This document shows, piece by piece, positions 1-11,172 of a stretch of 11,172 bases of DNA; positions within the stretch are counted from its first letter, which is position 1, and each line of letters opens with the position of its first letter. Below the pieces are notes generated by a model that did no database searches, was not told the DNA's origin, and saw nothing but the letters and a program-made list of their open reading frames with translations. Source of the stretch: a virus (taxonomy: Duplodnaviria > Heunggongvirae > Uroviricota > Caudoviricetes); IMG/VR virus record IMGVR_UViG_2778261217_000001, positions 1-11,172 of that record; one strand, 5' to 3'. Both the position numbers and the translations under genes were made by a program.

Positions 1-1260
1 ATGAAGCTCAACGCCAGACAGGTCGAGACCGCAAAGCCAAAAGATAAAACCTACAAAATGGCCGATGGCGGCGGTTTATATCTTGAGGTTTCTGCAAAGG
101 GTTCTAAATACTGGCGCATGAAATACAGACGCCCCTCTGACAAAAAAGAGGATCGCCTCGCTTTTGGTGTTTGGCCTACCGTGACGCTTGCTCAGGCAAG
201 GGCAAAGCGTGATGAAGCTAAAAAGCTGTTAGTGCAGGGCATCGACCCAAAAGCCGAACAGAAAGAAGCTCAGGCCGTGAACTCGGGGGCATACACTTTC
301 GAAACTATCGCTCGTGAATGGCACGCCAGTAACAAGCGCTGGAGTGAAGACCATCGATCACGCGTTCTACGCTATCTTGAGCTTTATATTTTCCCCCATA
401 TCGGTTCGTCCGACATTCGGCAGCTTAAAACCAGCCACCTGTTAGCCCCGATTAAAAAAGTTGATGCCAGCGGCAAACACGATGTCGCTCAGCGCCTGCA
501 ACAGCGCGTCACGGCCATTATGCGTTATGCCGTACAGAATGATTACATCGACTCAAATCCAGCCAGCGATATGGCCGGTGCGCTATCGACAACCAAAGCG
601 CGACATTACCCGGCTTTACCTTCCAGCCGGTTCCCTGAGTTTCTTGCACATCTAGCTGCATATCGTGGCCGTGTAATGACACGGATCGCGGTCGAGCTTT
701 CCTTGCTAACTTTTGTGCGCTCCAGTGAGTTACGTTTCGCGCGTTGGGATGAATTCGACTTCGATAAATCTCTTTGGCGTATACCTGCAAAACGAGAAGA
801 AATTAAAGGCGTGCGTTATTCGTACCGAGGCATGAAGATGAAAGAGGAACATATCGTTCCGCTTAGTCGGCAGGCGATGATTTTATTGAATCAGTTAAAG
901 CAGATTAGTGGTGATAAAGAGCTGCTTTTTCCGGGGGATCACGACGCAACTAAGGTTATGAGTGAAAACACCGTAAACAATGCATTGCGTGCCATGGGTT
1001 ATGATACGAAAACTGAGGTCTGTGGGCATGGTTTTAGGACGATGGCGCGTGGTGCTTTGGGTGAGTCAGGGTTATGGAGTGATGATGCGATTGAGCGCCA
1101 GTTAAGCCACTCAGAACGTAACAATGTTCGTGCGGCGTATATTCATACTTCTGAGCATTTGGAAGAGCGTCGGCTTATGATTCAGTGGTGGGCTGATTAT
1201 TTGCAAGAGTGTTATAAAGGGCCAATAACGCCATACGAATTTGCAAAGAAATCTCAGTAG
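1..1260 (+). CDS. int: P4-type tyrosine integrase (site-specific recombinase)
   Basis: 419-aa ORF. N-terminus AKPKDKTYKMADGGGLYLEVSAKGSKYWRMKYR is typical of P4/CP4-57-type integrases; C-terminal catalytic motifs HGFRTMARG (H-x-x-R) and a tyrosine in AAYIHTSEH. ORF starts at window base 1, so no upstream tRNA/att context is visible. Confidence 0.9.
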   Translation: MKLNARQVETAKPKDKTYKMADGGGLYLEVSAKGSKYWRMKYRRPSDKKEDRLAFGVWPTVTLAQARAKRDEAKKLLVQGIDPKAEQKEAQAVNSGAYTFETIAREWHASNKRWSEDHRSRVLRYLELYIFPHIGSSDIRQLKTSHLLAPIKKVDASGKHDVAQRLQQRVTAIMRYAVQNDYIDSNPASDMAGALSTTKARHYPALPSSRFPEFLAHLAAYRGRVMTRIAVELSLLTFVRSSELRFARWDEFDFDKSLWRIPAKREEIKGVRYSYRGMKMKEEHIVPLSRQAMILLNQLKQISGDKELLFPGDHDATKVMSENTVNNALRAMGYDTKTEVCGHGFRTMARGALGESGLWSDDAIERQLSHSERNNVRAAYIHTSEHLEERRLMIQWWADYLQECYKGPITPYEFAKKSQ

Positions 1261-1280
1261 AAAACATAAAATCTATTAGT

Positions 1281-1296
1281 TGTGATAGATATCACT
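1281..1296. promoter_or_regulatory. CRP-like palindrome TGTGA-N6-TCACT upstream of the cargo operon (alternatively a weak int terminator stem)
   Basis: tgtgatagatatcact matches the CRP half-sites TGTGA / TCACA at 9 of 10 positions; perfect 6-bp inverted repeat gtgata/tatcac (1282..1287, 1290..1295); followed by a T-rich tract. Confidence 0.25.
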
Positions 1297-1406
1297 TTGT
1301 TTTTATTGAAATATAACGAGGTTTATGCATCATAGGGCATAGTGCAAGTATATAAATAGATAACAAGCTAATAATTTTTCAAGATAATTATATTAAGAGG
1401 TGTTTA

Positions 1407-1577
1407 ATGGAAGTTAACGTGGTCACCATTGTTTTGGGGGTGTGTTTGTTTGCTGCTATCGTTGCCGTGCCTGTATGGAAAATAAGCGCAAGATTTTTCT
1501 TCAAAGGAGGAGTAAAAAATAAACTCAAAAATGTTTCAATTAATGGCGATTATACTGGTCGAGATAAGAAAAATTAA
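1407..1577 (+). CDS. Small predicted membrane protein, 56 aa (not in ORF track)
   Basis: ATG at 1407 preceded by AAGAGG (1395..1400, 6-nt spacer). Translation MEVNVVTIVLGVCLFAAIVAVPVWKISARFFFKGGVKNKLKNVSINGDYTGRDKKN has one hydrophobic helix; ends in tandem stops TAA TAA. C-terminal 20 aa repeat the N-terminus of the next gene. Confidence 0.4.
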   Translation: MEVNVVTIVLGVCLFAAIVAVPVWKISARFFFKGGVKNKLKNVSINGDYTGRDKKN

Positions 1578-1652
1578 TAAGGCCATTGTATGGGTATTTT
1601 TAATAGGCTGAAAAATGTTTTTGTAAATGGTGATTATGTTGGAAGGGATAAA
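1509..1652 (+). repeat. In-frame imperfect tandem duplication (copies 1509..1568 and 1593..1652, offset 84 bp) spanning the end of the mini-ORF and the start of the 180-aa gene
   Basis: Peptide GVKNKLKNVSINGDYTGRDK versus GIFNRLKNVFVNGDYVGRDK (14/20 identical); the DNA copies align over about 46 bp at roughly 75% identity. Confidence 0.55.
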
Positions 1653-2132
1653 ATTGTCTATAATACAGAACCCACTCAGCTAATGCTATTGCAAGAGGAG
1701 TATCAGGAAGAGTTTAAAAATAGGCAAATTTGCACAGAAATGATTGATGAACTGAATCATTATAATACCAAAAAAAGTAAAGTGCGTGATTTGGAAGTTA
1801 AACTTAATGCTGCTGGGTACTCTTCCTTTCTTGACGAAGCTCGCGAGTTAAAAGAGTTGGTTTCGAAATTAATTATACAATATCAGCATTATCGCTCAGC
1901 ACAGAAAATAATCGCTTTTTTATTGTCAGACGTTCATTCAATTTTTCAATACAGAATAAAACCTCATATAGTAAATAAACAACAAGAGGCACAGATCCTT
2001 GAATTAATATATTTATATATAGAGTGTGAACTGAGTAGAAAGTTAGGTATAAATGCCTTGGAGATATATAATAGACAATTGCGTGGTATGGTTTTCTTCC
2101 TTACAGGAAACTGTCATTTGGAGTGGGAATAA
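1590..2132 (+). CDS. Hypothetical protein, 180 aa (cargo operon gene A; no recognisable motif)
   Basis: ORF in AT-rich island, same strand as and immediately after the mini-ORF; stop TAA overlaps the next start as TAATG (2130..2134). Confidence 0.6.
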   Translation: MGIFNRLKNVFVNGDYVGRDKIVYNTEPTQLMLLQEEYQEEFKNRQICTEMIDELNHYNTKKSKVRDLEVKLNAAGYSSFLDEARELKELVSKLIIQYQHYRSAQKIIAFLLSDVHSIFQYRIKPHIVNKQQEAQILELIYLYIECELSRKLGINALEIYNRQLRGMVFFLTGNCHLEWE

Positions 2133-2629
2133 TGTTATTATATAACAAGGCATTTGATATCAATCATACTATTCTAAGAATGTCTTCATGGCTGCTAAAT
2201 AGCTCTGAGCCGTTAATAAGTCTTGAGGGTATAAGAATATTTGACTTCTTAATAGCATTTCCTGAGTACATATCCAAGTTATCACTAGGGAAAGAATTAG
2301 TGAAGGAAAGAAATAAGTTCAAAAGGTTTTCTAACCCTTATAATGCTTTTGATCCTCAATCCTTGTTTCAGCAAATGGAAGGGGTGCAAAAATCTGCAAT
2401 TTGTTCTTTAGTAACAGCATCAGTTTTAGTAGAAATTAATAATGAATTATATGAAATAAAAAAAGATAAGTTATATGCGATTGGATTTACCAAAACCAAT
2501 CTTTTTGATAGCATAAACGAAGATGTGATCTCATTTATCAGTAACAATCTTGAGACATTACCTGTAACGGGAATAACTGGACTTAAGGCCGCTAGCAAAT
2601 TAATGAGTTTTAAATATGATCGTATATAA
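2132..2629 (+). CDS. Hypothetical protein, 165 aa (cargo operon gene B; ORF track starts it at GTG 2123)
   Basis: ATG at 2132 overlaps the upstream stop (TAATG); purine-rich ggagtggg at 2120..2127; 3' end overlaps the ATPase gene start by 14 nt. Confidence 0.6.
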   Translation: MLLYNKAFDINHTILRMSSWLLNSSEPLISLEGIRIFDFLIAFPEYISKLSLGKELVKERNKFKRFSNPYNAFDPQSLFQQMEGVQKSAICSLVTASVLVEINNELYEIKKDKLYAIGFTKTNLFDSINEDVISFISNNLETLPVTGITGLKAASKLMSFKYDRI

Positions 2630-4529
2630 TCCCACATTGAATATTAAAAAACTTTACGCATTCAAGGATGGTAAAGAGGTCATACACTTGAAGTTTCATA
2701 ATGGGCTGAATGTCATATATGGCTCGAACGGAAGCGGAAAAACCTCGGCAATTCAGTTACTCGCGTATGTTCTTGGTTCTACGATCTATAATTGGAAAGA
2801 AGAAGCAGGGAGTTGTGATTACGTTATAGCTGAAATTTACGCAAATGAGTCTACTATAACCATTCGTCGTGAGATAAGTGACACAATGGCAGGTATGAGC
2901 ATTTTTTTTGGTACATATGAAGAAAGTATCAAAGCAGGGAAAACTGGATGGTTTAGCTACCCCTACGCAATTTCTACTAACAAGGAAAGTTTTTCACAAC
3001 GTATCTTTGAAATCTTAAACATACCTGAGGCTAAATCTGACGGGATTAATAATCTTACTTTACATCAAATCCTAAGGCTGGTGTATAACAACCAATCTGA
3101 TTCTGCAACAAGTATATTTAACGACGAGAAGTTTGATTCCGCAATAAAACGAGAGTTTGTAAGTAATTATTTGCTCGGTTTGTATGATGATGATCTTTAT
3201 AATAATAAATTAGAGTATATTAAAAAAGAAAAAGAGCTAACAAAAACAATAGCTGAGTTAAAGGGTTTACTATTATTAATAGATGGTCAAGATCTTGATT
3301 TTAAATCTGATAATTTAGATAGCTTATCTGAACAATTACAGGGAAAGATCGATTCTATAATTGAAGAAATTGAAAAGTATAAAGAGTTAGATACACGGAT
3401 AAAATTTAGTAATGAAGTTAAGGCAATTAGTGCAGAACAATTAGTGAAGGATAAGAACAAGCTTATTGCCTTGGAGGTTGAATTAAGTCAAATACAATAT
3501 AATATTGTTGATTCAACCAAATTTATTGAAGAATTACAAAATAAATTACTTGCTATTAATGATTCAATTAAATTTAATAGTTCATTCAAGTTTAAAGAGT
3601 TCGATACCTGCCCATCATGTTTTACTAAGTTGCCAACTGCTCATGATGATAGTAAATGCTCTCTATGTGGTACAGAAGACCCGGATTCGGCAAAGCAAAT
3701 TAATTATGCTAGAATGAAAAATGAAATAATGATTCAAATCAACGAGTCACAAAATCTTTTGGAAAGGAATAAAATAAAGAGTGGTGAGATCTCAAAGCAA
3801 ATAAAATGCTTAAAAAGTGGAATGCGGAAAGAAGTTAACAAAGTTTCGGTTGTTAGTTCATCTTTGAATTCCCATGATGATAGCTTACTTTATAGTAAAT
3901 ATAAAGAGATTGGAGAGCTTGAAGAAAGACTAGATACTTTAGGTCGTATGGAGTCCGTTTATTCAAAAATTAAAACACTTCAGACTCTCCGCGATAGCTT
4001 ACAAGCCAGAGTTACATTTTTACAAGAAAACATTAGTAAAAAAGAACATGATCTTCAGTTAAAAATGCCAGCACTGAAAGAGAAAGTCAGTGAATATATG
4101 GAAGAAGTTTTAACTAAAGATGTCGAAAATATTGATGATCCTCATGATAAAGCTGAATTTAGTAACATAACTAGCATCGACTTTGATCTGGCTTCAAATA
4201 GGATTGTTGTCAATAATAAAGTCTCATTCTCTGAGAGCTCAATGTACTATCTTAATAATGCCCTGCATATAGCATTGCTAAAATTAAGTTTGGTTGATCC
4301 TAATGTAAGATTTCCACGTCTTTTAATTCTGGACGGTATAGAAAATGGTGGCATGGAAGATGCTCGCTCACAGGGTATCCAAAAAACTTTAAAAGAAATT
4401 TCTGATGAGTTTTGCGGGGTTCGGCATCAGATTATTATTACAACTAAAGGAATATACCATGCCGTTGATAATGATAAATATCGAGTTGGAGAAAAATTTA
4501 CTTCATCAAATCGTAGTTTAAATATGTGA
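2616..4529 (+). CDS. SMC/Rad50-like ABC ATPase, 637 aa (Walker A head, long coiled-coil, C-terminal Walker B-like segment)
   Basis: N-terminal LNVIYGSNGSGKTSAIQLLAYVLG (Walker A GSNGSGKT, SMC_N-like); long K/E/L/I-rich heptad-like middle containing CPSC-N13-CSLC (about 3609..3666); C-terminal FSESSMYYLNNALHIALL followed by RLLILDGIENGGMED (hydrophobic run ending in D, Walker B/D-loop-like). Confidence 0.8.
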   Translation: MIVYNPTLNIKKLYAFKDGKEVIHLKFHNGLNVIYGSNGSGKTSAIQLLAYVLGSTIYNWKEEAGSCDYVIAEIYANESTITIRREISDTMAGMSIFFGTYEESIKAGKTGWFSYPYAISTNKESFSQRIFEILNIPEAKSDGINNLTLHQILRLVYNNQSDSATSIFNDEKFDSAIKREFVSNYLLGLYDDDLYNNKLEYIKKEKELTKTIAELKGLLLLIDGQDLDFKSDNLDSLSEQLQGKIDSIIEEIEKYKELDTRIKFSNEVKAISAEQLVKDKNKLIALEVELSQIQYNIVDSTKFIEELQNKLLAINDSIKFNSSFKFKEFDTCPSCFTKLPTAHDDSKCSLCGTEDPDSAKQINYARMKNEIMIQINESQNLLERNKIKSGEISKQIKCLKSGMRKEVNKVSVVSSSLNSHDDSLLYSKYKEIGELEERLDTLGRMESVYSKIKTLQTLRDSLQARVTFLQENISKKEHDLQLKMPALKEKVSEYMEEVLTKDVENIDDPHDKAEFSNITSIDFDLASNRIVVNNKVSFSESSMYYLNNALHIALLKLSLVDPNVRFPRLLILDGIENGGMEDARSQGIQKTLKEISDEFCGVRHQIIITTKGIYHAVDNDKYRVGEKFTSSNRSLNM

Positions 4530-4539
4530 TTTTGAACAG

Positions 4540-4566
4540 GTGCGGCTTTAGCTGCACTTGTCTTTT
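4540..4566 (+). terminator. Candidate intrinsic terminator after the ATPase gene
   Basis: 7-bp stem gtgcggc/gctgcac (one G-U pair), loop ttta, then T-rich ttgtcttttg, 11 nt after the stop codon. Confidence 0.45.
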
Positions 4567-4761
4567 GAATAATAATATATCGCAATTATTAATTCCGTGT
4601 AACTTTATTATTGTCTATGTTATTTATAGATGTTGGCGTTATATTATCGGTCGATAATGGATTTGAGCTATTTTAGGTTAGTTAAAGTTGTTTTAAAAAT
4701 TCGATAAAGAAAATAATTTGATACTCACAAATCCTTTCTTAGCATACTTAAAGTACCTCTT

Positions 4762-4991: not shown

Positions 4992-5264
4992 TCAGACAGG
5001 AATTTGCTGACGGTTTGACAGCTTTGACGCGGAGCCATAGCGATTGAGTGTTTGCTGTTGTTTTTCCGGTATTTTTGCTTTGTCTGATTCCTGTTCATTG
5101 CACTGAGGCTTCATAATGATCGTATCCACGCTTTCCAGTGCGGTAAATGTGCAGGAACATTCCAGATTCTGGCACTGATACCATGAGCGTTTAACCGACG
5201 GAGCTTCATAGGCGCTGGTTCTGGCGTGAGCGACCGCGCCACATTCAGGACACTTCAGGGCCAT
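4992..5264 (-). CDS. delta: Ogr/Delta-family zinc-finger late transcription activator, 90 aa (start moved to internal ATG)
   Basis: MALKCPECGAVAHARTSAYEAPSVKRSWYQCQNLECSCTFTALESVD carries the Ogr/Delta C-x2-C ... C-x4-C pattern. ATG at 5264..5262 is preceded by AAGGAG and sits 1 nt after the psu stop; the ORF-track start at 5366 would overlap psu by about 100 nt. Confidence 0.85.
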   Translation of the reverse strand: MALKCPECGAVAHARTSAYEAPSVKRSWYQCQNLECSCTFTALESVDTIIMKPQCNEQESDKAKIPEKQQQTLNRYGSASKLSNRQQIPV

Positions 5265-5265
5265 A

Positions 5266-5820
5266 TCAGCACACTCCTTTTTCATTAAGTCGGTTAAGGC
5301 GGGCCAGGAAAACTTTATGTTGTGCCGGGGTGAAACTGGCTGAAGCATCAGCGCGCATTGATGCATCCACCGTTAATCCGGTTTCGTCGATAATGCTCTT
5401 ATATGCTGCTGAAATTACCGGAGTACGGACTTCCGTTTGTCGGGCTACAGCGGTTCGTAATATTTTCATTGCCGCCTCAAGCCCGTATGGTGCACAAAGA
5501 AAAGGAGCCAGAGCGTCAGTGAGTGCATCACCATGCTCGCTCATGAAGTTTTCAGTTGCGCTTGTAACACAGCTTTCCAGCACAATCTGGTGAGCATAAA
5601 GACCATCCCGGGCGGCACAGTTAATCTGCCATTCGAGGAGTGCAAGACGCTCACGAAGATCCTCAAGTTGGCTGGCATATGCTGCGGGTTTTTCTTCAGT
5701 ATCCAGCAAAGCAGCCAGACGAAGCTGGCTGGTACTTTGCACATTACGTAGTGTCAGCCAGCTTTTTATTGCCGCGCGGTAATCGTTGAGAGCTTCCTGA
5801 GTAATGGTTCCGGTATTCAT
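5266..5820 (-). CDS. psu: Psu-like polarity suppression protein, 184 aa
   Basis: Size and motifs (EHGDALTDALAPFL, FTPAQHKVF) match my recollection of P4 Psu (about 190 aa); start ATG overlaps the sid stop (ATGA, 5817..5820). Confidence 0.75.
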   Translation of the reverse strand: MNTGTITQEALNDYRAAIKSWLTLRNVQSTSQLRLAALLDTEEKPAAYASQLEDLRERLALLEWQINCAARDGLYAHQIVLESCVTSATENFMSEHGDALTDALAPFLCAPYGLEAAMKILRTAVARQTEVRTPVISAAYKSIIDETGLTVDASMRADASASFTPAQHKVFLARLNRLNEKGVC

Positions 5821-6569
5821 TCCTTCTCGCCCCCTTTAGCCATGTCACGCTGTTTAAGCATCCGGGAACGTGCTGCAGGGCTGGGTGATTGTCTGGCATC
5901 CTGTATGGCTTTATCGTCCGCATAAATGCTGATCCCCGGCAGGGCAATATCATCCGTTGAAGATACGTTACAGAACAGTGCCGGAGTGGTGAGTTGCTCG
6001 CTGATAAATTGCTTCAGCACACTTTCGGGGTCGTTTACGGTATGAACTACACCGATAACAGAAGATGCGCTTCGGCCCAGAGTCATTTTCAGCAGTCCAA
6101 GGATCTGAATAAGTTTCTGGCCGTGTTCCTTCATAAACTCATTCCAGAGCCACACTGCATGAGTTTCAATCAGGTGATTATGTTCGCTGATGTAGCGGTT
6201 TGCAGCATCCGCAGTTTTCCATGGCAGGAATTCATTTTCTGCAGCCTGAGCAGCCAGCAAATCTTCGAACTCATCCAGTGTTTCGCGTCCGAGGGCGATT
6301 TCTGCCCGCAGTTTTTTCATTCGTGGCGTCATATTCCCCTGATTCTCACGAAACAGGTTTCGCCATTCATCATTAAGCGCCTGCGTCTCCGTTTTTGTAT
6401 CTTCCTGACGTTTACGGATAGTTTCAGTCATTGCAGCGGCTTCGGTTTGTTTTCGCCGTTCTTCCTGCCAGACAGCTTTTGCTGCCTTAACTTTTTCCAC
6501 CGCTTCGCGAATTTTCGGCGGGAGGGTGGGGGTAATGTTTGCATCAGAGATCTGGTTAACAGTTGTCAT
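5817..6569 (-). CDS. sid: Sid-like capsid size determination protein, 250 aa from ATG 6569 (ORF track starts it at TTG 6602)
   Basis: E/K/A/Q-rich helical protein at the head of the operon, coupled to psu; ATG at 6569 has GGAG with a 5-nt spacer, whereas 6602 is TTG without a Shine-Dalgarno. Assignment is by position and size; I do not recall a sequence motif for it. Confidence 0.5.
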   Translation of the reverse strand: MTTVNQISDANITPTLPPKIREAVEKVKAAKAVWQEERRKQTEAAAMTETIRKRQEDTKTETQALNDEWRNLFRENQGNMTPRMKKLRAEIALGRETLDEFEDLLAAQAAENEFLPWKTADAANRYISEHNHLIETHAVWLWNEFMKEHGQKLIQILGLLKMTLGRSASSVIGVVHTVNDPESVLKQFISEQLTTPALFCNVSSTDDIALPGISIYADDKAIQDARQSPSPAARSRMLKQRDMAKGGEKE

Positions 6570-6603
6570 GGCTGCTCCGGTAGTGTTTTGTTGTTGTGTC
6601 AAT

Positions 6604-6659
6604 TGTGCCGGGGTCCATACAAGCGCACTACCGAGGAGGATTGTGTCAGTGACTGAACA
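6604..6659 (-). promoter_or_regulatory. Two TGT-N12-ACA elements upstream of sid (candidate Delta/Ogr-responsive late promoter)
   Basis: tgtgccggggtccataca (6604..6621) and tgtgtcagtgactgaaca (6642..6659); TGT-N12-ACA is the consensus for Ogr/Delta-activated P2/P4 late promoters; the distal site centre is about 81 nt upstream of the sid ATG. Confidence 0.4.
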
Positions 6660-6726
6660 ATGACCTTGTTCTGGCTAGCCAGAGAAAGGTGTCATGTCTG
6701 ATCTATACGCTTCCTTTAATACATAC

Positions 6727-6930
6727 TATTCACTACTGTTCACTTCAATAAAAATATAGTAAATACATGTGGTTAAGTGGTGTAGTGTTTTAATTAAAGT
6801 GATCATCTACTGTTCATGACTGTTCACAGAGATAAAATTAAACATATATTTTTTTTTCATATAAGTCGCGATATTTATTTCAGTTTATTACTGGATCTTT
6901 TCTCCTCACCAATATTCACCAGTATTCAAT
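6727..6930. repeat. Iteron-like direct repeats in the AT-rich divergent region (candidate ori)
   Basis: Exact 8-mer actgttca three times in one orientation (6735..6742, 6809..6816, 6819..6826), plus tattcacc (6913..6920) and tattcaat (6923..6930); these resemble the P4 alpha-binding iteron TGTTCACC as I recall it. Confidence 0.35.
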
Positions 6931-7474
6931 ACATATTCTATGTAAAGAATAAAAGATGTCTTATGTCTGTTTAATAATTAAACATTCAACCTCCCTGCAC
7001 TCAGTTGCATTTCAGGAAAATATTCATAAAAATGAATTTGTCTGATGTTCATTAAACACATCCGGATACATGCGGAAGTAAGATGGTAATTTAATTTCTT
7101 TAATCATCGGATTTATTGATACATATGGTGAGCTGTTTATTTTTGGCCGTTTTTGGCTCTTTTATTAATCAGGTGTTGTCTTAGTGCTTATGATGTAACG
7201 CCCTGAATGATATGGGCTGGTTCAGATTTGAGCTGTGATCCTGCCTAGTGTAATAGACTTTTTTATTATTGATGCTCCTTATTATATTCCATAAAGGAAT
7301 TGTTTGTTTTTGTTCGTTTCATACGGTTTTTAGCTGTTTTATTTTTTGAGAAATCAACATTTCACACAAAATAAATAAAGCATGCGCGAGCCGCTTATAT
7401 AAACATAATAAGGAGCTACCTGAATCCGCATGGAATTGCCCGGACTGTTGTAAACATATTAGAGAGGTAGCCAG

Positions 7475-7735
7475 ATGAATAGTATTTCCGTTTCCACCCC
7501 GGCACCAGCTGCTCCGGTGCTCCCGGTTCCGGCTCAGCAGGAGCGCTTCATACGATTACCTGAAGTGATGCACCTTTGCGGGCTATCCCGTTCAACCATC
7601 TACGACCTTATCAGCCGCGATGCCTTCCCGCAGCAGATATCCCTGGGTGGAAAAAATGTGGCCTGGGTACAGTCGGAGGTCAGTGCATGGATGGCGGCGC
7701 GAATTGCTGCCCGCGAGCAAGGAGGCCATGCGTGA
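7475..7735 (+). CDS. alpA: AlpA-family (Vis-like) phage transcriptional regulator / excisionase-like DNA-binding protein, 86 aa
   Basis: [50 protein letters not shown] is the characteristic AlpA/MerR-like HTH core; SD gagg with 7-nt spacer before ATG 7475. Confidence 0.85.
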
Positions 7736-7770
7736 AACTTGCTTTGCAGTCTCATCTCCTTTTTTCTGGC

Positions 7771-7800
7771 TTGCGTCCTGATATCTTTTCCAGGTATAGT
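7771..7800 (+). promoter_or_regulatory. Candidate sigma70 promoter for the immunity/replication operon (PLE-like)
   Basis: TTGCGT (7771..7776), 18-nt spacer, TATAGT (7795..7800). Confidence 0.35.
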
Positions 7801-7830
7801 TTTCCCGCTGCCGCAAAATCGGCTGCCGGG

Positions 7831-7855
7831 CGTAGGAACCCGAGTTACTTATTGG
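7831..7855 (+). promoter_or_regulatory. seqA-like antisense target site (a/b boxes)
   Basis: gtaggaa (7832..7838) and cttattgg (7848..7855) are exact complements of ttcctac and ccaataag in the downstream antisense element. Confidence 0.4.
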
Positions 7856-7862
7856 CGACACC

Positions 7863-7885
7863 AGACGCGCCGTGCGTCTTTTTTT
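7863..7885 (+). terminator. Intrinsic terminator directly after the seqA-like site
   Basis: Stem agacgc/gcgtct (7863..7868, 7874..7879), loop gccgt, then seven T (7879..7885). Confidence 0.5.
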
Positions 7886-7949
7886 ACGTCGTTGCTCAGG
7901 CACACCCATTTTTCGGGCTGCGGTGCTTATACCTTAGCCCCTTTCAGAT

Positions 7950-8030
7950 AATGGTGGTCCGGGCGGGGCAGCCTTCGGGCTGGCCGGTTTCCAATAAGGC
8001 CGGTATTCCTACCCCCGTTCGGGTCACCAC
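7950..8030 (+). ncRNA. c4/CI-like antisense immunity RNA candidate (boundaries approximate)
   Basis: Structured GC-rich segment with a UUCG-loop hairpin (gggcagcc-ttcg-ggctggcc, 7966..7985) followed by ccaataag (7991..7998) and ttcctac (8006..8012), which pair with two bipartite target sites on the same strand; no plausible ORF. Confidence 0.4.
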
Positions 8031-8037
8031 CCATGAG

Positions 8038-8080
8038 CGTAGGAACTCCGGTGGTGGCATTTACCGCTACTTATTGGAGG
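8038..8080 (+). promoter_or_regulatory. seqC-like antisense target site overlapping the ribosome-binding site of the first small ORF
   Basis: gtaggaa (8039..8045) and cttattgg (8070..8077); the latter runs into GGAGG (8076..8080), the Shine-Dalgarno of the ATG at 8089. Confidence 0.4.
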
Positions 8081-8088
8081 TTGCCCTT

Positions 8089-8280
8089 ATGGCTACGATC
8101 CTCGCCCCGTCACATCCTCAATTTATATTTGTTTTTGCCGCCGTTCGTCGTGCAGAACGTAAACCACGTATCAGTATGCTGCGTATCATCGCCAGCAATG
8201 AGCATCATGCACGTCTTTCACTGGTCCATGAGTATGTGCTTTGTCTTGCTGCTCGCCTGCCTGTCCGGGAGGTGATCTAA
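8089..8280 (+). CDS. Small hypothetical protein, 63 aa (3' part of track ORF 7576..8280; first gene controlled by the antisense module)
   Basis: GGAGG with 8-nt spacer before ATG 8089; stop TAA overlaps the next start (TAATG 8278..8282); same RBS style as the two following ORFs. Confidence 0.4.
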
Positions 8281-8504
8281 TGAATCACGCCGCAATCTCT
8301 TATGACGATATTCTCCGCCTGAAGCATCTTCGTAACGTGGGAGAGTTTGTCACCGGAATGGCTGTTCTTCAGGATTGCTACGAAAAACCTGCCAGTGCTC
8401 AATGTGAACAACTGGTTTCCCTGATTTATCTGATGACAGAGCAGCTTGATGGCGTGGTACAGCGTTGCCAGGATGACCTCATGAACATGGAGGTGGTGCA
8501 ATGA
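8280..8504 (+). CDS. Small hypothetical protein, 74 aa (track ORF 8241..8504 trimmed to the ATG)
   Basis: GGAGG (8268..8272) with 7-nt spacer before ATG 8280; stop overlaps the next start as ATGA. Confidence 0.6.
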
Positions 8505-8824
8505 AATCACGTACTCTTTCCCTTTCACTTCGGGTAGCGTTGTATCGCCGCGCGGTAGCCTGCGCCTGGTTGAGTGCCTGCTATCAGCAAAACCGCCATC
8601 TGCAGCTCACTCTGGATGAAATTGAAACCGCTATTGCCCGTGAGCTTGAAGGATTTTATCTGCGACAGCACGGGCAAACAAAAGGCATGGAAATCGCCTG
8701 CGCCCTGCTTTCAGACCTGATGGAATACGGCCCTCTAATGTCCTGTCCCGCACTCTCCCAGCTCGGAATAGCCGTAATGGATGAGTTATGCGTCCGTCAC
8801 ATCAAAAAGCCGGTTTTACACTGA
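8501..8824 (+). CDS. Small hypothetical protein, 107 aa
   Basis: GGAGG (8489..8493) with 7-nt spacer; ATGA overlap with the upstream stop; ends 14 nt before the primase start. Confidence 0.6.
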
Positions 8825-8838
8825 GGGAGAACTGCGTC

Positions 8839-11172
8839 ATGTCAGGAATGAAAGTCAGTCAGGCCGTGAAGGCTGCCCGCGGTCACTGGGCTCAGATTCT
8901 GCCAGCGCTGGGCGTGAATATATTGAAAAATCGCCATCAGCCTTGCCCGGTCTGTGGCGGTAAAGATCGTTTTCGCTTCGACGATCAGGAAGGACGCGGA
9001 ACATGGTTCTGCAATCAGTGCGGAGCCGGGGATGGTTTAGCGCTTGTCACCAGGGCACTGAATGTGGATATCAGTGAAGCAGCTGACAGGATACATGGAC
9101 TGACACATGATCTGTCTATAGTTAATTCCGAGGTCAGGACGTTAACCGCCGATACCGATAGCGGGAAAGATGCAGCGGCAGCACTTGCCGCGCGACTGCT
9201 GCAAGCCTCGCGTGAATCTGCCGGAAACACTTATCTTACACATAAAGGTTTCCCGGAGCATATTTGCCATGAGCTGACTTCAGCTCATAAGGCCGGTGGT
9301 GTGATGTTCCGCCCCGGTGATTTGATCGTCCCACTCTATAACGCTGACGGGGAGCTGGTGAATATTCAGCTTATCAGTGGCAATGGTAGCAAGTGTTTTC
9401 TTAAAGGAGGTCAGGTTAAGGAGGCCTATCATCTGATAGAAGGGGGCGGGAGTTCTGTAAGAAGGATTTGGATTGCGGAAGGTTACGCCACGGCGCTTAC
9501 CATTCATTATTTGACAGGAGAAGCCGTCATGGTGGCATTTTCGTCGGTCAACTTTCTTTCTCTGAGCAGCGTTGCCCATAATAAGTATCCTGGATATCAG
9601 TTAATTATTGCAGCGGACCGCGATCTGAATGGTTCAGGCCAGAACAGGGCTGAAACTGCTGCAAAAGCGAGTCAGTGTGACATTGTGCTGCCACCGGTTT
9701 TTGGTGACTGGAATGATGCGCTTACCCAATACGGAGAGGAATCCACCAGGACGGCAATTCTTGAGGCTTTGAAGCCACATAACGCCAGTCCTTTCGACAC
9801 AATGAGTGAAGCAGAATTCACAGCGATGAGTGTCAGCGAAAAAGCTCAGAGGGTTCGGGAGCATTACAGGGATGCACTGGCGGTTGATTCGAACGGGCAG
9901 CTTTTATCCCGCTACGAGTCTGGAGCGTGGAAAGTTATTTCTCAGTCAGATTTTGCCCGAGATGTCGCAGCCCTTTTCCAGCGCCTCGGGGCACCGTTTT
10001 CCTCAGGAAAAATTGCCTCACTGGTGGAAACATTAAAGTTAATTGTTCCGCAGCAGCAAAATCCGTCACGTCATCTGATTGGTTTTCGTAATGGCGTTCT
10101 CGATACGCGAACAGGGCTTTTTAGTCCGCACTGTAAAGAGAACTGGCTGCGTACCCTGTGTGAAGTCGATTTCACGCCACCGGTAAAGGGGGAAACGCTT
10201 GAAACTCATGCCCCGGCATTCTGGCGTTGGCTGGACCGGGCCGCCGGACACAAGCCAGCAAAACGCGACATTATTCTTGCAGCGTTATTTATGGTGCTGG
10301 CGAACCGCTATGACTGGCAGCTCTTTCTGGAAGTGACTGGCCCTGGTGGAAGTGGCAAAAGTATTCTGGCTGAAATTGCGACCATGCTTGCTGGAGAGGA
10401 TAACGCCACCTCTGCGACCATTGAAACGCTGGAGTCCCCGCGAGAACGTGCGGCTCTGATAGGTTTTTCTCTTATTCGCCTGCCTGATCAGGAGAAGTGG
10501 AGCGGCGACGGCGCCGGGCTTAAGGCTATAACTGGTGGCGATGCAGTATCTGTGGACCCCAAATATCAGAATGCTTATTCAACACATATTCCGGCGGTTA
10601 TCTTGGCCGTAAATAATAATCCTATGCGCTTCACTGATCGCAGTGGTGGTGTGTCCCGCAGGAGAGTTATTCTGCATTTTCCTGAGCAGATAGCACCGGA
10701 AGAACGCGATCCGCAGTTGAAAGATAAAATTGCACGAGAACTGGCTGTGATTGTTCGTCAGCTCATGCAGCGTTTCAGCGATCCGATGAGCGCCAGAACA
10801 TTGCTTCAGTCGCAGCAGAATTCTGATGAGGCTCTCACCATCAAGCGTGATGCTGATCCAGCATTTGATTTTTGTGGCTACCTTGAGGCATTACCTGACA
10901 CCAACGGCATGTTTATGGGGAACGCCAATATTGTCCCGCGCCAGCCACGTACGTACCTTTACCATGCCTATCTTGTATACATGGAGGCTAATGGCTTTAA
11001 AAATACCCTTAGCCTGACAATGTTTGGCAAAGGGCTACCAGTTATGCTGAAGGAATACGGGCTAAATTATGAGAAGCGGCGAACTAATCAGGGAATGCAG
11101 ACTAACCTCACTTTAAAAGAGGAAAGTAATGCAGACTGGCTTCCCAAGTGTGATGAGCCAACAATCAAATAA
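8839..11172 (+). CDS. alpha: P4 alpha-type primase/helicase, 777 aa (start moved to ATG 8839)
   Basis: N-terminal zinc-binding motif CPVCGGKDRFRFDDQEGRGTWFCNQCG; acidic TOPRIM-like region (IIAADRD); Walker A VTGPGGSGKSILAEIA in the C-terminal half; SD gggaga at 8825..8830. The 777-aa length equals P4 alpha as I recall it. Confidence 0.9.
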   Translation: MSGMKVSQAVKAARGHWAQILPALGVNILKNRHQPCPVCGGKDRFRFDDQEGRGTWFCNQCGAGDGLALVTRALNVDISEAADRIHGLTHDLSIVNSEVRTLTADTDSGKDAAAALAARLLQASRESAGNTYLTHKGFPEHICHELTSAHKAGGVMFRPGDLIVPLYNADGELVNIQLISGNGSKCFLKGGQVKEAYHLIEGGGSSVRRIWIAEGYATALTIHYLTGEAVMVAFSSVNFLSLSSVAHNKYPGYQLIIAADRDLNGSGQNRAETAAKASQCDIVLPPVFGDWNDALTQYGEESTRTAILEALKPHNASPFDTMSEAEFTAMSVSEKAQRVREHYRDALAVDSNGQLLSRYESGAWKVISQSDFARDVAALFQRLGAPFSSGKIASLVETLKLIVPQQQNPSRHLIGFRNGVLDTRTGLFSPHCKENWLRTLCEVDFTPPVKGETLETHAPAFWRWLDRAAGHKPAKRDIILAALFMVLANRYDWQLFLEVTGPGGSGKSILAEIATMLAGEDNATSATIETLESPRERAALIGFSLIRLPDQEKWSGDGAGLKAITGGDAVSVDPKYQNAYSTHIPAVILAVNNNPMRFTDRSGGVSRRRVILHFPEQIAPEERDPQLKDKIARELAVIVRQLMQRFSDPMSARTLLQSQQNSDEALTIKRDADPAFDFCGYLEALPDTNGMFMGNANIVPRQPRTYLYHAYLVYMEANGFKNTLSLTMFGKGLPVMLKEYGLNYEKRRTNQGMQTNLTLKEESNADWLPKCDEPTIK

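Follow-up and report, generated by a model that had tools for sequence, protein, structure and literature searches.

An 11,172-bp stretch of Caudoviricetes DNA (IMG/VR record IMGVR_UViG_2778261217_000001; "the window" denotes all of it) carries, in the gene-free gap between its sid-like gene and alpA, a candidate replication origin of a P4-like satellite prophage. Judged by its sequence and position, the segment at 6715-6830 is the positional and nucleotide-level homolog of the P4 origin, and we put the probability that it is an ori1-type origin of such a satellite at about 0.8; the AT-rich tract at 6828-6903 and a second repeat array at 6904-6941 probably belong with it. The window matches, at 100% identity, a P4-like satellite prophage adjoining a tRNA-Leu gene of E. 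coli NIPH17_0036, and in elements of this kind a P4-type origin is ordinary and to be expected. An earlier reading, made from the letters of the window without database searches (the sequence-only reading), had proposed a candidate origin equivalent to P4 ori at 6727-7330, and homology and position now support that proposal. Its extent held in part: the origin does lie inside the gap, but the conserved core covers only 6715-6830, perhaps reaching 6941.

Alignment with P4 and repeat counts

In the GenBank record of P4 (NC_001609) the rep_origin feature spans 9086-9809, between ORF88/alpA and sid, and includes six "ori type 1 repeats" (TGTTCACC) at 9310-9413, while crr is annotated downstream of alpha; the position and iteron build that the sequence-only reading had given for the P4 origin are correct by this annotation. 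The alignment to P4 ori that it had suggested as a check identifies window 6715-6830 as a homolog of the type-1 cluster, the two aligning slot by slot in pairwise as well as multiple alignments. In the orientation of the window, the P4 cluster reads ACTGTTCACC TCTGTTCACC, a 35-bp AT spacer, GGTGAACA, 12 bp, and then ACTGTTCACC g TCTGTTCACC ACTGTTCACC. An nhmmer profile built from 62 other P4-like loci, with the window and its identical genome excluded, matched 6715-6830 with E=2.8e-21 and 68.5 bits, and nothing else in the window convincingly. A blastn search for distant matches of 6560-7480 against a phage collection containing P4 returned no match; the homologous stretch is short and AT-rich, and it was direct alignment with P4 together with the profiles that resolved the relationship.

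The segment resembles P4 ori1 in its place between sid and ORF88/alpA, in DNA that can be aligned and in a layout of ~115 bp with iterons phased at 10-11 bp. It differs in that the window lacks an exact TGTTCACC, has a degenerate inverted iteron and a degenerate slot 4, reads TTCAT in slot 5, bears an extra 10-bp array downstream (6904-6941), and sets the core ~620 bp from alpA as against ~265 bp in P4. The type-2 repeats of P4 (3 x 10 bp, GCTTTAAGTG) occur neither in the window nor in any of 64 other loci and, by this comparison, are specific to P4 rather than family-defining.

The word ACTGTTCA occurs exactly three times in the window (6735-6742, 6809-6816 and 6819-6826), each time on the plus strand and within a span of 92 bp. 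Dinucleotide shuffles give a mean of 0.29 copies, with none of 200 reaching three, so that the cluster of same-orientation copies noted in the sequence-only reading is confirmed by count. The degenerate copies described as tattcacc/tattcaat are present as well, at 6727-6734 (TATTCACT), 6913-6920 (TATTCACC) and 6923-6930 (TATTCAAT). As the iteron unit, ACTGTTCA needs amending, for it comprises the left eight bases of the true unit, which is the 10-mer ACTNTTCACY. A 10-nt weight matrix for the family (described below) finds six sites in the intergenic region, as compared with 0.90 in composition-matched shuffles (0/1000 reach six), and five of the hits lie on one strand within 220 bp, exceeding all 300 shuffles; the cluster runs from 6725 to 6911 and is entirely on the plus strand.

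The gap in which these repeats sit had been described as a gene-free, AT-rich region of roughly 870 bp, and this is borne out. It measures 905 bp from the annotated start of sid (6569) to the start of alpA (7475), or 872 bp from the longest sid open reading frame (ORF), has a GC content of 0.27-0.39 against about 0.5 in the flanking genes, and contains no annotated gene in any RefSeq record. Its sole ORF of more than 40 aa (6816-6974, 52 aa) is not preserved in a 98%-identical relative, where a 10-bp indel interrupts it, and an Rfam scan of the gap returned nothing credible, only tsr24 at chance level (E=0.88). On these grounds we rejected a hidden small gene or RNA. Searches of 6570-7474 for a DnaA box (TTWTNCACA) and for the integration host factor (IHF) consensus (WATCAANNNNTTR) found neither, as expected for DnaA-independent initiation.

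The iteron module in other P4-like loci

A genome scan with alpha yielded 80 P4-like loci, from Escherichia relatives to Pantoea, Pectobacterium, Serratia and Yersinia; in 66 sequences, with P4, the source genome and the window counted in, the DNA available upstream of alpA was long enough. Of these 66, 64 contain a homolog of the P4 iteron cluster, which mostly ends ~250-330 bp before the alpA ATG. The core of the origin is a conserved module of ~115 bp, consisting of two tandem iterons, an AT spacer, one inverted iteron and three tandem iterons. Its unit, captured in a matrix from 362 sites, is the 10-mer ACT[G/C/A]TTCAC[C/T], in which G is preferred over C and C over A at position 4, and C over T at position 10. 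TGTTCACC is P4's own version of the right eight bases of this 10-mer; since the exact word is also missing in 10 other loci it does not define the family, and what is conserved is the 10-mer. Among other loci with a full 1 kb upstream, the ori core holds five to eight family iterons of at least 8 bits (median six).

The conservation of the P4 ori core across Enterobacterales with a 10-nt iteron is slightly new. Two large comparative studies of P4-like satellites (PMC8628076, PMC13586616) mention neither iterons nor crr and contain no discussion of a satellite origin. As a non-coding marker, the ~115-bp module could help to find and delimit P4-like satellites, and the variation in iteron number between lineages (ori 3-8, crr 0-12) offers natural variants for asking how many alpha sites are needed and whether crr is really needed at all.

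The spacer between slot 2 and the inverted iteron (6745-6778 in the window) keeps its sequence across genera (..ATAAAAA.ATAAGTAATACAGTAAGTTAAAG) beyond mere AT-richness, which hints at a specific site, for instance one for a host factor, for priming or for loading. Four of the loci (L033, L034, L037 and L051) are short metagenome-bin contigs labelled Clostridiales, Ferruginibacter, Ruminococcus or unclassified "bacterium"; their alpha genes are 72-77% identical to that of the window, and they are most likely binning contamination from Enterobacterales.

Iterons kept and lost in the window

The features of the control region are as follows, with scores in bits from the family matrix.

6604-6621 and 6642-6659, minus strand: two TGT-N12-ACA dyads upstream of sid, aligning with dyads upstream of P4 sid
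6715-6830, plus strand: core of the ori1 homolog, six slots and an internal AT spacer, from the profile and the P4 alignment
6725-6734, plus strand: slot 1, ACTATTCACT; 14.9 bits; commonest variant of the slot (21/63 loci)
6735-6744, plus strand: slot 2, ACTGTTCACT, with the first ACTGTTCA; 16.8 bits; commonest variant (16/63 loci)
6745-6778, plus strand: AT-rich spacer, aligning with the family-conserved TTAATAAAAAAGATAAGTAATACAGTAAGTTAAAG
6779-6788, minus strand: slot 3, relic of the inverted iteron, GGTGTAGTGT against GGTGAACAGT in the family; no matrix hit (64 loci aligned)
6798-6807, plus strand: slot 4, degenerate, AGTGATCATC against ACTGTTCACC in the family; no matrix hit of at least 6 bits
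6809-6818, plus strand: slot 5, ACTGTTCATG, with the second ACTGTTCA; 7.2 bits
6819-6828, plus strand: slot 6, ACTGTTCACA, with the third ACTGTTCA; 12.8 bits
6828-6903, no strand assigned: AT-rich tract between the core and the second array, candidate unwinding element
6904-6941, plus strand: second array of 10-11-bp iteron-like units, CCTCACCAA / TATTCACCAG / TATTCAATAC / ATATTCTATG; period 10 by Tandem Repeats Finder (TRF)
7030-7396: lineage-specific spacer, not conserved origin, holding the ttttggc repeat at 7140-7163
7397-7474, plus strand: homolog of the P4 late leftward promoter (PLL) and leader, immediately preceding alpA and closing the control region on the right

Slots 1, 2, 5 and 6 are kept in register, and the plan of two direct, one inverted and three direct iterons is only partly realised. 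Slot 3 of the window (GGTGTAGT) has lost the TTCAC core, and slot 5 has TTCAT instead of TTCAC, a change common to Scandinavium (ACTGTTCATA), where slot 4 reads AGTATTCATC (L050). As the TTCAT variants of slots 4 and 5 are shared with Scandinavium at 82% alpha identity, they are old.

Among four E. coli relatives, none of the 40 columns of slots 1, 2, 5 and 6 is variable (P about 0.002), as compared with 14.1% of the columns of their intergenic regions, and against Scandinavium these slots differ at 5 of 40 positions when 43% differ overall. A further 13 contigs of the lineage in IMG/VR were found by a 25-mer spanning slots 5-6 and are informative only for the other slots; in slots 1 and 2 their sole difference is a T-to-C substitution at position 10, a variant that the family allows, against a background of 19.4%. 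Within the E. coli lineage no other part of the core varies as much as the spacer at 6745-6778 (29% of columns).

The second array lies 76 bp downstream of the core, contains a matrix hit at 6911 (7.8 bits) and shares a direct repeat (D4) with slots 1-2, and its TATTCACC is an annotated type-1 repeat in P4 crr. It differs from Scandinavium in 24% of columns, as against 43% overall. In E. coli O26:H11 str. 11368 (L085) one more TATTCACCAG unit is present near window 6911-6920, and this extra unit accounts for match lengths of 930 rather than 921 bp in many genomes of enterohaemorrhagic E. coli.

Between core and array, the least stable 40-mer of the intergenic region (6828-6867, 85% AT) directly adjoins slot 6, with a nearest-neighbour dG of -39.5 against a window mean of -52.5, and we infer that the tract at 6828-6903 is the best candidate unwinding element. 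The sequence-only reading had assigned that role to phased T-tracts further right. The repeat is present as described, with ttttggc at 7141-7147 and 7151-7157 in a weak 10-bp tandem repeat (7140-7163; 2.4 copies, TRF score 34), but the role found no support. The T-tract lies ~310 bp from the iterons in lineage-specific DNA that is missing from P4 and most relatives. It varies in 33% of columns within E. coli, above background, and differs by 73% from Scandinavium, and relatives of 88% identity miss the first ttttggc copy. Its stability (-48.7 kcal/mol per 40-mer at 7130-7169) is unremarkable. We therefore rejected it as an unwinding element on conservation and stability. A terminator-like hairpin at the T-tract is weak, such hits being no commoner than in shuffles.

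The initiator, crr and a possible mechanism

The initiator expected to act at this site, alpha, is a full-length protein that shares 73% identity with its P4 counterpart over 773 aa. Its C terminus (10849-11148) matches the P4 origin-binding domain (PDB 1KA8) with E=1.6e-50, and by analogy with P4 this domain is expected to bind the iterons. It shows no departure at columns conserved in at least 85% of 81 relatives, and an altered DNA specificity of alpha as the explanation of the odd iterons was rejected for that reason.

In P4, crr (4291-4590) consists of two 120-bp repeats with 12 matrix hits at a lower cut-off of at least 5 bits. The genome identical to the window has one crr-like unit downstream of alpha (L002 16614-16900; NZ_AP024561.1, about 2943130-2943420) with two strong iterons, ACTCTTCACC and an inverted ACTATTCACT. 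P4 crr draws on the same iteron family as the feature studied here, including the TATTCACC and TCTTCACC variants of the second array; it differs in lying downstream of alpha, which places crr outside the window, and the feature at issue is ori, not crr. One preprint calls crr essential for P4 replication. Across the loci L003-L082 its content ranges from 0 to 12 strong sites, and in 14 loci the 500 bp following the alpha stop codon contain no such site.

A mechanism can be drawn from the P4 paradigm, which goes back to Ziegelin, Lanka, Calendar and colleagues. After derepression, alpha would bind the helically phased 10-bp iterons (ACTNTTCACY) through its C-terminal winged-helix domain and would also contact crr, the second cis site downstream of its own gene. 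It would then open the adjoining AT-rich DNA, serving as its own helicase and primase, whereupon host DNA polymerase III could carry out bidirectional theta replication without DnaA, DnaB, DnaC or DnaG. The product of the ORF106 homolog, a DUF5375 protein which we take to be Cnr, a negative regulator working with alpha at ori and crr, would probably damp initiation.

Iteron origins of theta plasmids (pSC101, F, RK2, R6K, P1) have iterons of 17-22 bp and a Rep protein with two winged-helix domains, and they work with DnaA boxes and DnaB/DnaG, often with an IHF site. The P4-type origin is like them in having a cis-encoded initiator, phased direct repeats and an adjacent AT-rich tract, and unlike them in its 10-bp unit, in the absence of a DnaA box and in an initiator that is itself the primase-helicase; the two are analogous and are not known to be homologous. 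Satellite origins of Staphylococcus aureus pathogenicity islands and other phage-inducible chromosomal islands have short iterons flanking an AT-rich tract, with their own Rep helicase and Pri primase, and are helper-induced. Both these and the P4-type origins are satellite-encoded; their proteins and repeats are not known to be related, no search for similarity between them having been made.

Active origin, relic or operators

Several observations weigh against an ori1-type origin at 6715-6830. Slots 3 and 4 are without the near-invariant TTCAC core and slot 5 has TTCAT; iterons of at least 8 bits in the core number three, as against 5-8 (median six) elsewhere; and the profile score of 68.5 bits is the second lowest of 64. 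The exact P4 8-mer TGTTCACC has no copy in the window, and with up to one mismatch it occurs nine times in the whole window against 7.05 expected, which is not above chance. The comparison of words with shuffled sequence, which had been suggested as a check, is divided, with exact ACTGTTCA and the 10-nt matrix enriched and one-mismatch TGTTCACC words not. The second array is no more conserved within E. coli than background, and crr in the source genome consists of just one unit bearing two strong iterons, the family median being six. Finally, the test of conservation within the lineage rests on few sequences, and the IMG/VR set was selected by pattern on slots 5-6. By its count of strong iterons (three against 5-8) this is the weakest copy sampled. 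Since these three are half the common complement and crr is reduced as well, the origin, if it fires, is probably weaker than that of P4.

These same features would suit a decaying relic, an ori1 homolog that has lost the ability to initiate, the satellite persisting mainly as a defence island in the chromosome. Such a fate is consistent with the fewest strong iterons among the sampled loci and the second-lowest profile score, with the loss of the inverted iteron and slot 4, with a crr cut to two strong iterons, with the ~370 bp of lineage-specific DNA that separate the origin from the PLL upstream of alpA, and with an ABC-three-component defence cargo and an Ogr/Delta gene flagged by the Prokaryotic Genome Annotation Pipeline (PGAP) as a partial pseudogene. 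We nevertheless consider it unlikely. The four kept iterons show no variation, as against 14-19% variable columns in the DNA around them, and TTCAT variants common to Scandinavium imply an old, stable state rather than recent decay. Moreover, the genes alpha, alpA, sid and psu are intact, as is the immunity RNA (Rfam C4/isrK family), and the Ogr/Delta ORF encodes a single, complete zinc-finger domain (Pfam E=1.2e-16). The core also recurs with different integrase and cargo modules: from psu to alpha, origin included, it is found at 92-99.6% identity in IMG/VR contigs (L086-L098) that have no match to the integrase and cargo region of the window (1-4760) and carry other such modules there. These varied partners suggest that the psu-to-alpha lineage is still undergoing exchange. 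Taken at the level of sequence, the pattern of conservation and the exchange of modules argue for maintained alpha-binding sites over free decay.

A variant of the ori1-type reading, which we likewise regard as improbable, is that the E. coli/Scandinavium lineage runs a remodelled P4 origin, without slots 3-4 and with the array at 6904-6941 supplying auxiliary alpha sites. If this were so, repeat number and a minimal crr would tune the strength of satellite replication, and the satellite replicon would be attenuated by nature, a state perhaps favoured where elements serve mainly as defence islands.

It is very doubtful that the repeats act chiefly as operators, through which alpha, Cnr, AlpA or Delta would control expression from the divergent sid and alpA promoters rather than initiate replication. 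They do sit between the dyads at 6604-6659 and the PLL/leader at 7397-7474. The dyads, by analogy with the P2/P4 late promoters, at which the activator binds TGT-N12-ACA, are probable Delta/Ogr activator sites of the sid promoter (Psid) and would form the left flank of the origin. Slots 5-6 (TGTTCATGACTGTTCACA) themselves happen to form a TGT-N12-ACA dyad (6811-6828), but P4 lacks this dyad, which hinges on a final A specific to the lineage. The homologous repeats of P4, furthermore, are annotated as origin repeats inside rep_origin, and in P4 and most relatives further copies of the 10-mers are found at crr, which is downstream of alpha and remote from both promoters. Chance recurrence of short words in AT-rich, low-complexity intergenic DNA, for which one could cite the unenriched one-mismatch TGTTCACC words (9 against 7.05) and the abundance of short two-copy repeats in the region, is refuted by three exact 8-mers against 0.29, six matrix hits against 0.90, the profile match at E=2.8e-21 and the conservation of the module from Escherichia to Yersinia, Serratia and Pectobacterium.

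With an ori1-type origin at 6715-6830, the gene-free AT-rich gap would be accounted for as an origin together with divergent late promoters, which mostly completes the annotation of the satellite rather than revealing an unknown element.

The lineage-specific spacer and the PLL/leader

To the right of the second array, the homolog of the P4 PLL lies at 7397-7474 (local alignment score 51, shuffle maximum 29). A family PLL/leader profile matches 7397-7515 (E=5.8e-12) and otherwise only a 26-nt fragment at 7004-7029, and other E. coli P4-like elements match only 7351-7431; the DNA at ~7030-7396 is on these grounds lineage-specific. A placement of the P4 PLL at window 7004-7076, given by a first pairwise MAFFT alignment, was rejected in favour of 7397-7474 on the local alignment and the family profile. 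The spacer also holds a degenerate second copy of the T-tract repeat at 7311-7343 (repeat D2). We do not claim that the extra ~370 bp arose by tandem duplication of the PLL/leader, since the support for this is confined to a fragment of 16-26 nt (score 27, shuffle maximum 22; E=0.08).

In Klebsiella sp. BIGb0407 (L032), the PLL/leader and the first ~20 nt of alpA are clearly duplicated, ~300 bp apart, with copies (GAGGTAGCCC..ATGC[G/A]CACTGCTTTT) ~320 and 17 bp upstream of the alpA ATG and with AATATCCACCAAT twice in the DNA between them. Duplication of this type may be a route to long sid-alpA gaps.

Two inverted iteron-like 10-mers lie on the minus strand at the edges of the gap, ACTGTTAACC at 6554-6563 (11.0 bits), just inside the sid start, and ACTATTCATC at 7474-7483 (11.2 bits), across the alpA start codon. 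Neither is present in P4, and both are probably due to chance.

Genes of the satellite

The remaining features of the window, whose genes were identified from Pfam and RefSeq, are the following.

1-1260: integrase
1590-4529: ABC-three-component defence cargo, between integrase and psu
4995-6569, minus strand: Ogr/Delta zinc-finger gene, psu and sid-like gene
7475-7735: alpA
7794-8034: P4-type immunity RNA and target sites (Rfam: c4-a1b1 7794-7846, isrK 7807-7884, C4 antisense RNA 7947-8034)
8501-8824, plus strand: DUF5375 protein, homolog of P4 ORF106 (Pfam PF17345, E=2.4e-48)
8839-11172, plus strand: alpha primase-helicase, 777 aa

The cargo at 1590-4529 occupies a typical P4 defence hotspot; according to the identical RefSeq genome it consists of two small components and an AAA ATPase, and its GC content is ~30%. 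P4 ORF106 itself carries the DUF5375 annotation in the P4 GenBank record. For the sid-like protein a tblastn comparison with P4 sid gave no match, and its sole Pfam match is the Psu family. The order at 4995-6569 is sid-like gene, psu, Ogr/Delta, as compared with sid, delta, psu in P4. The Rfam matches to the immunity RNA are strong and fall within an ORF for an Icd-like/Ash protein (7732-8280).

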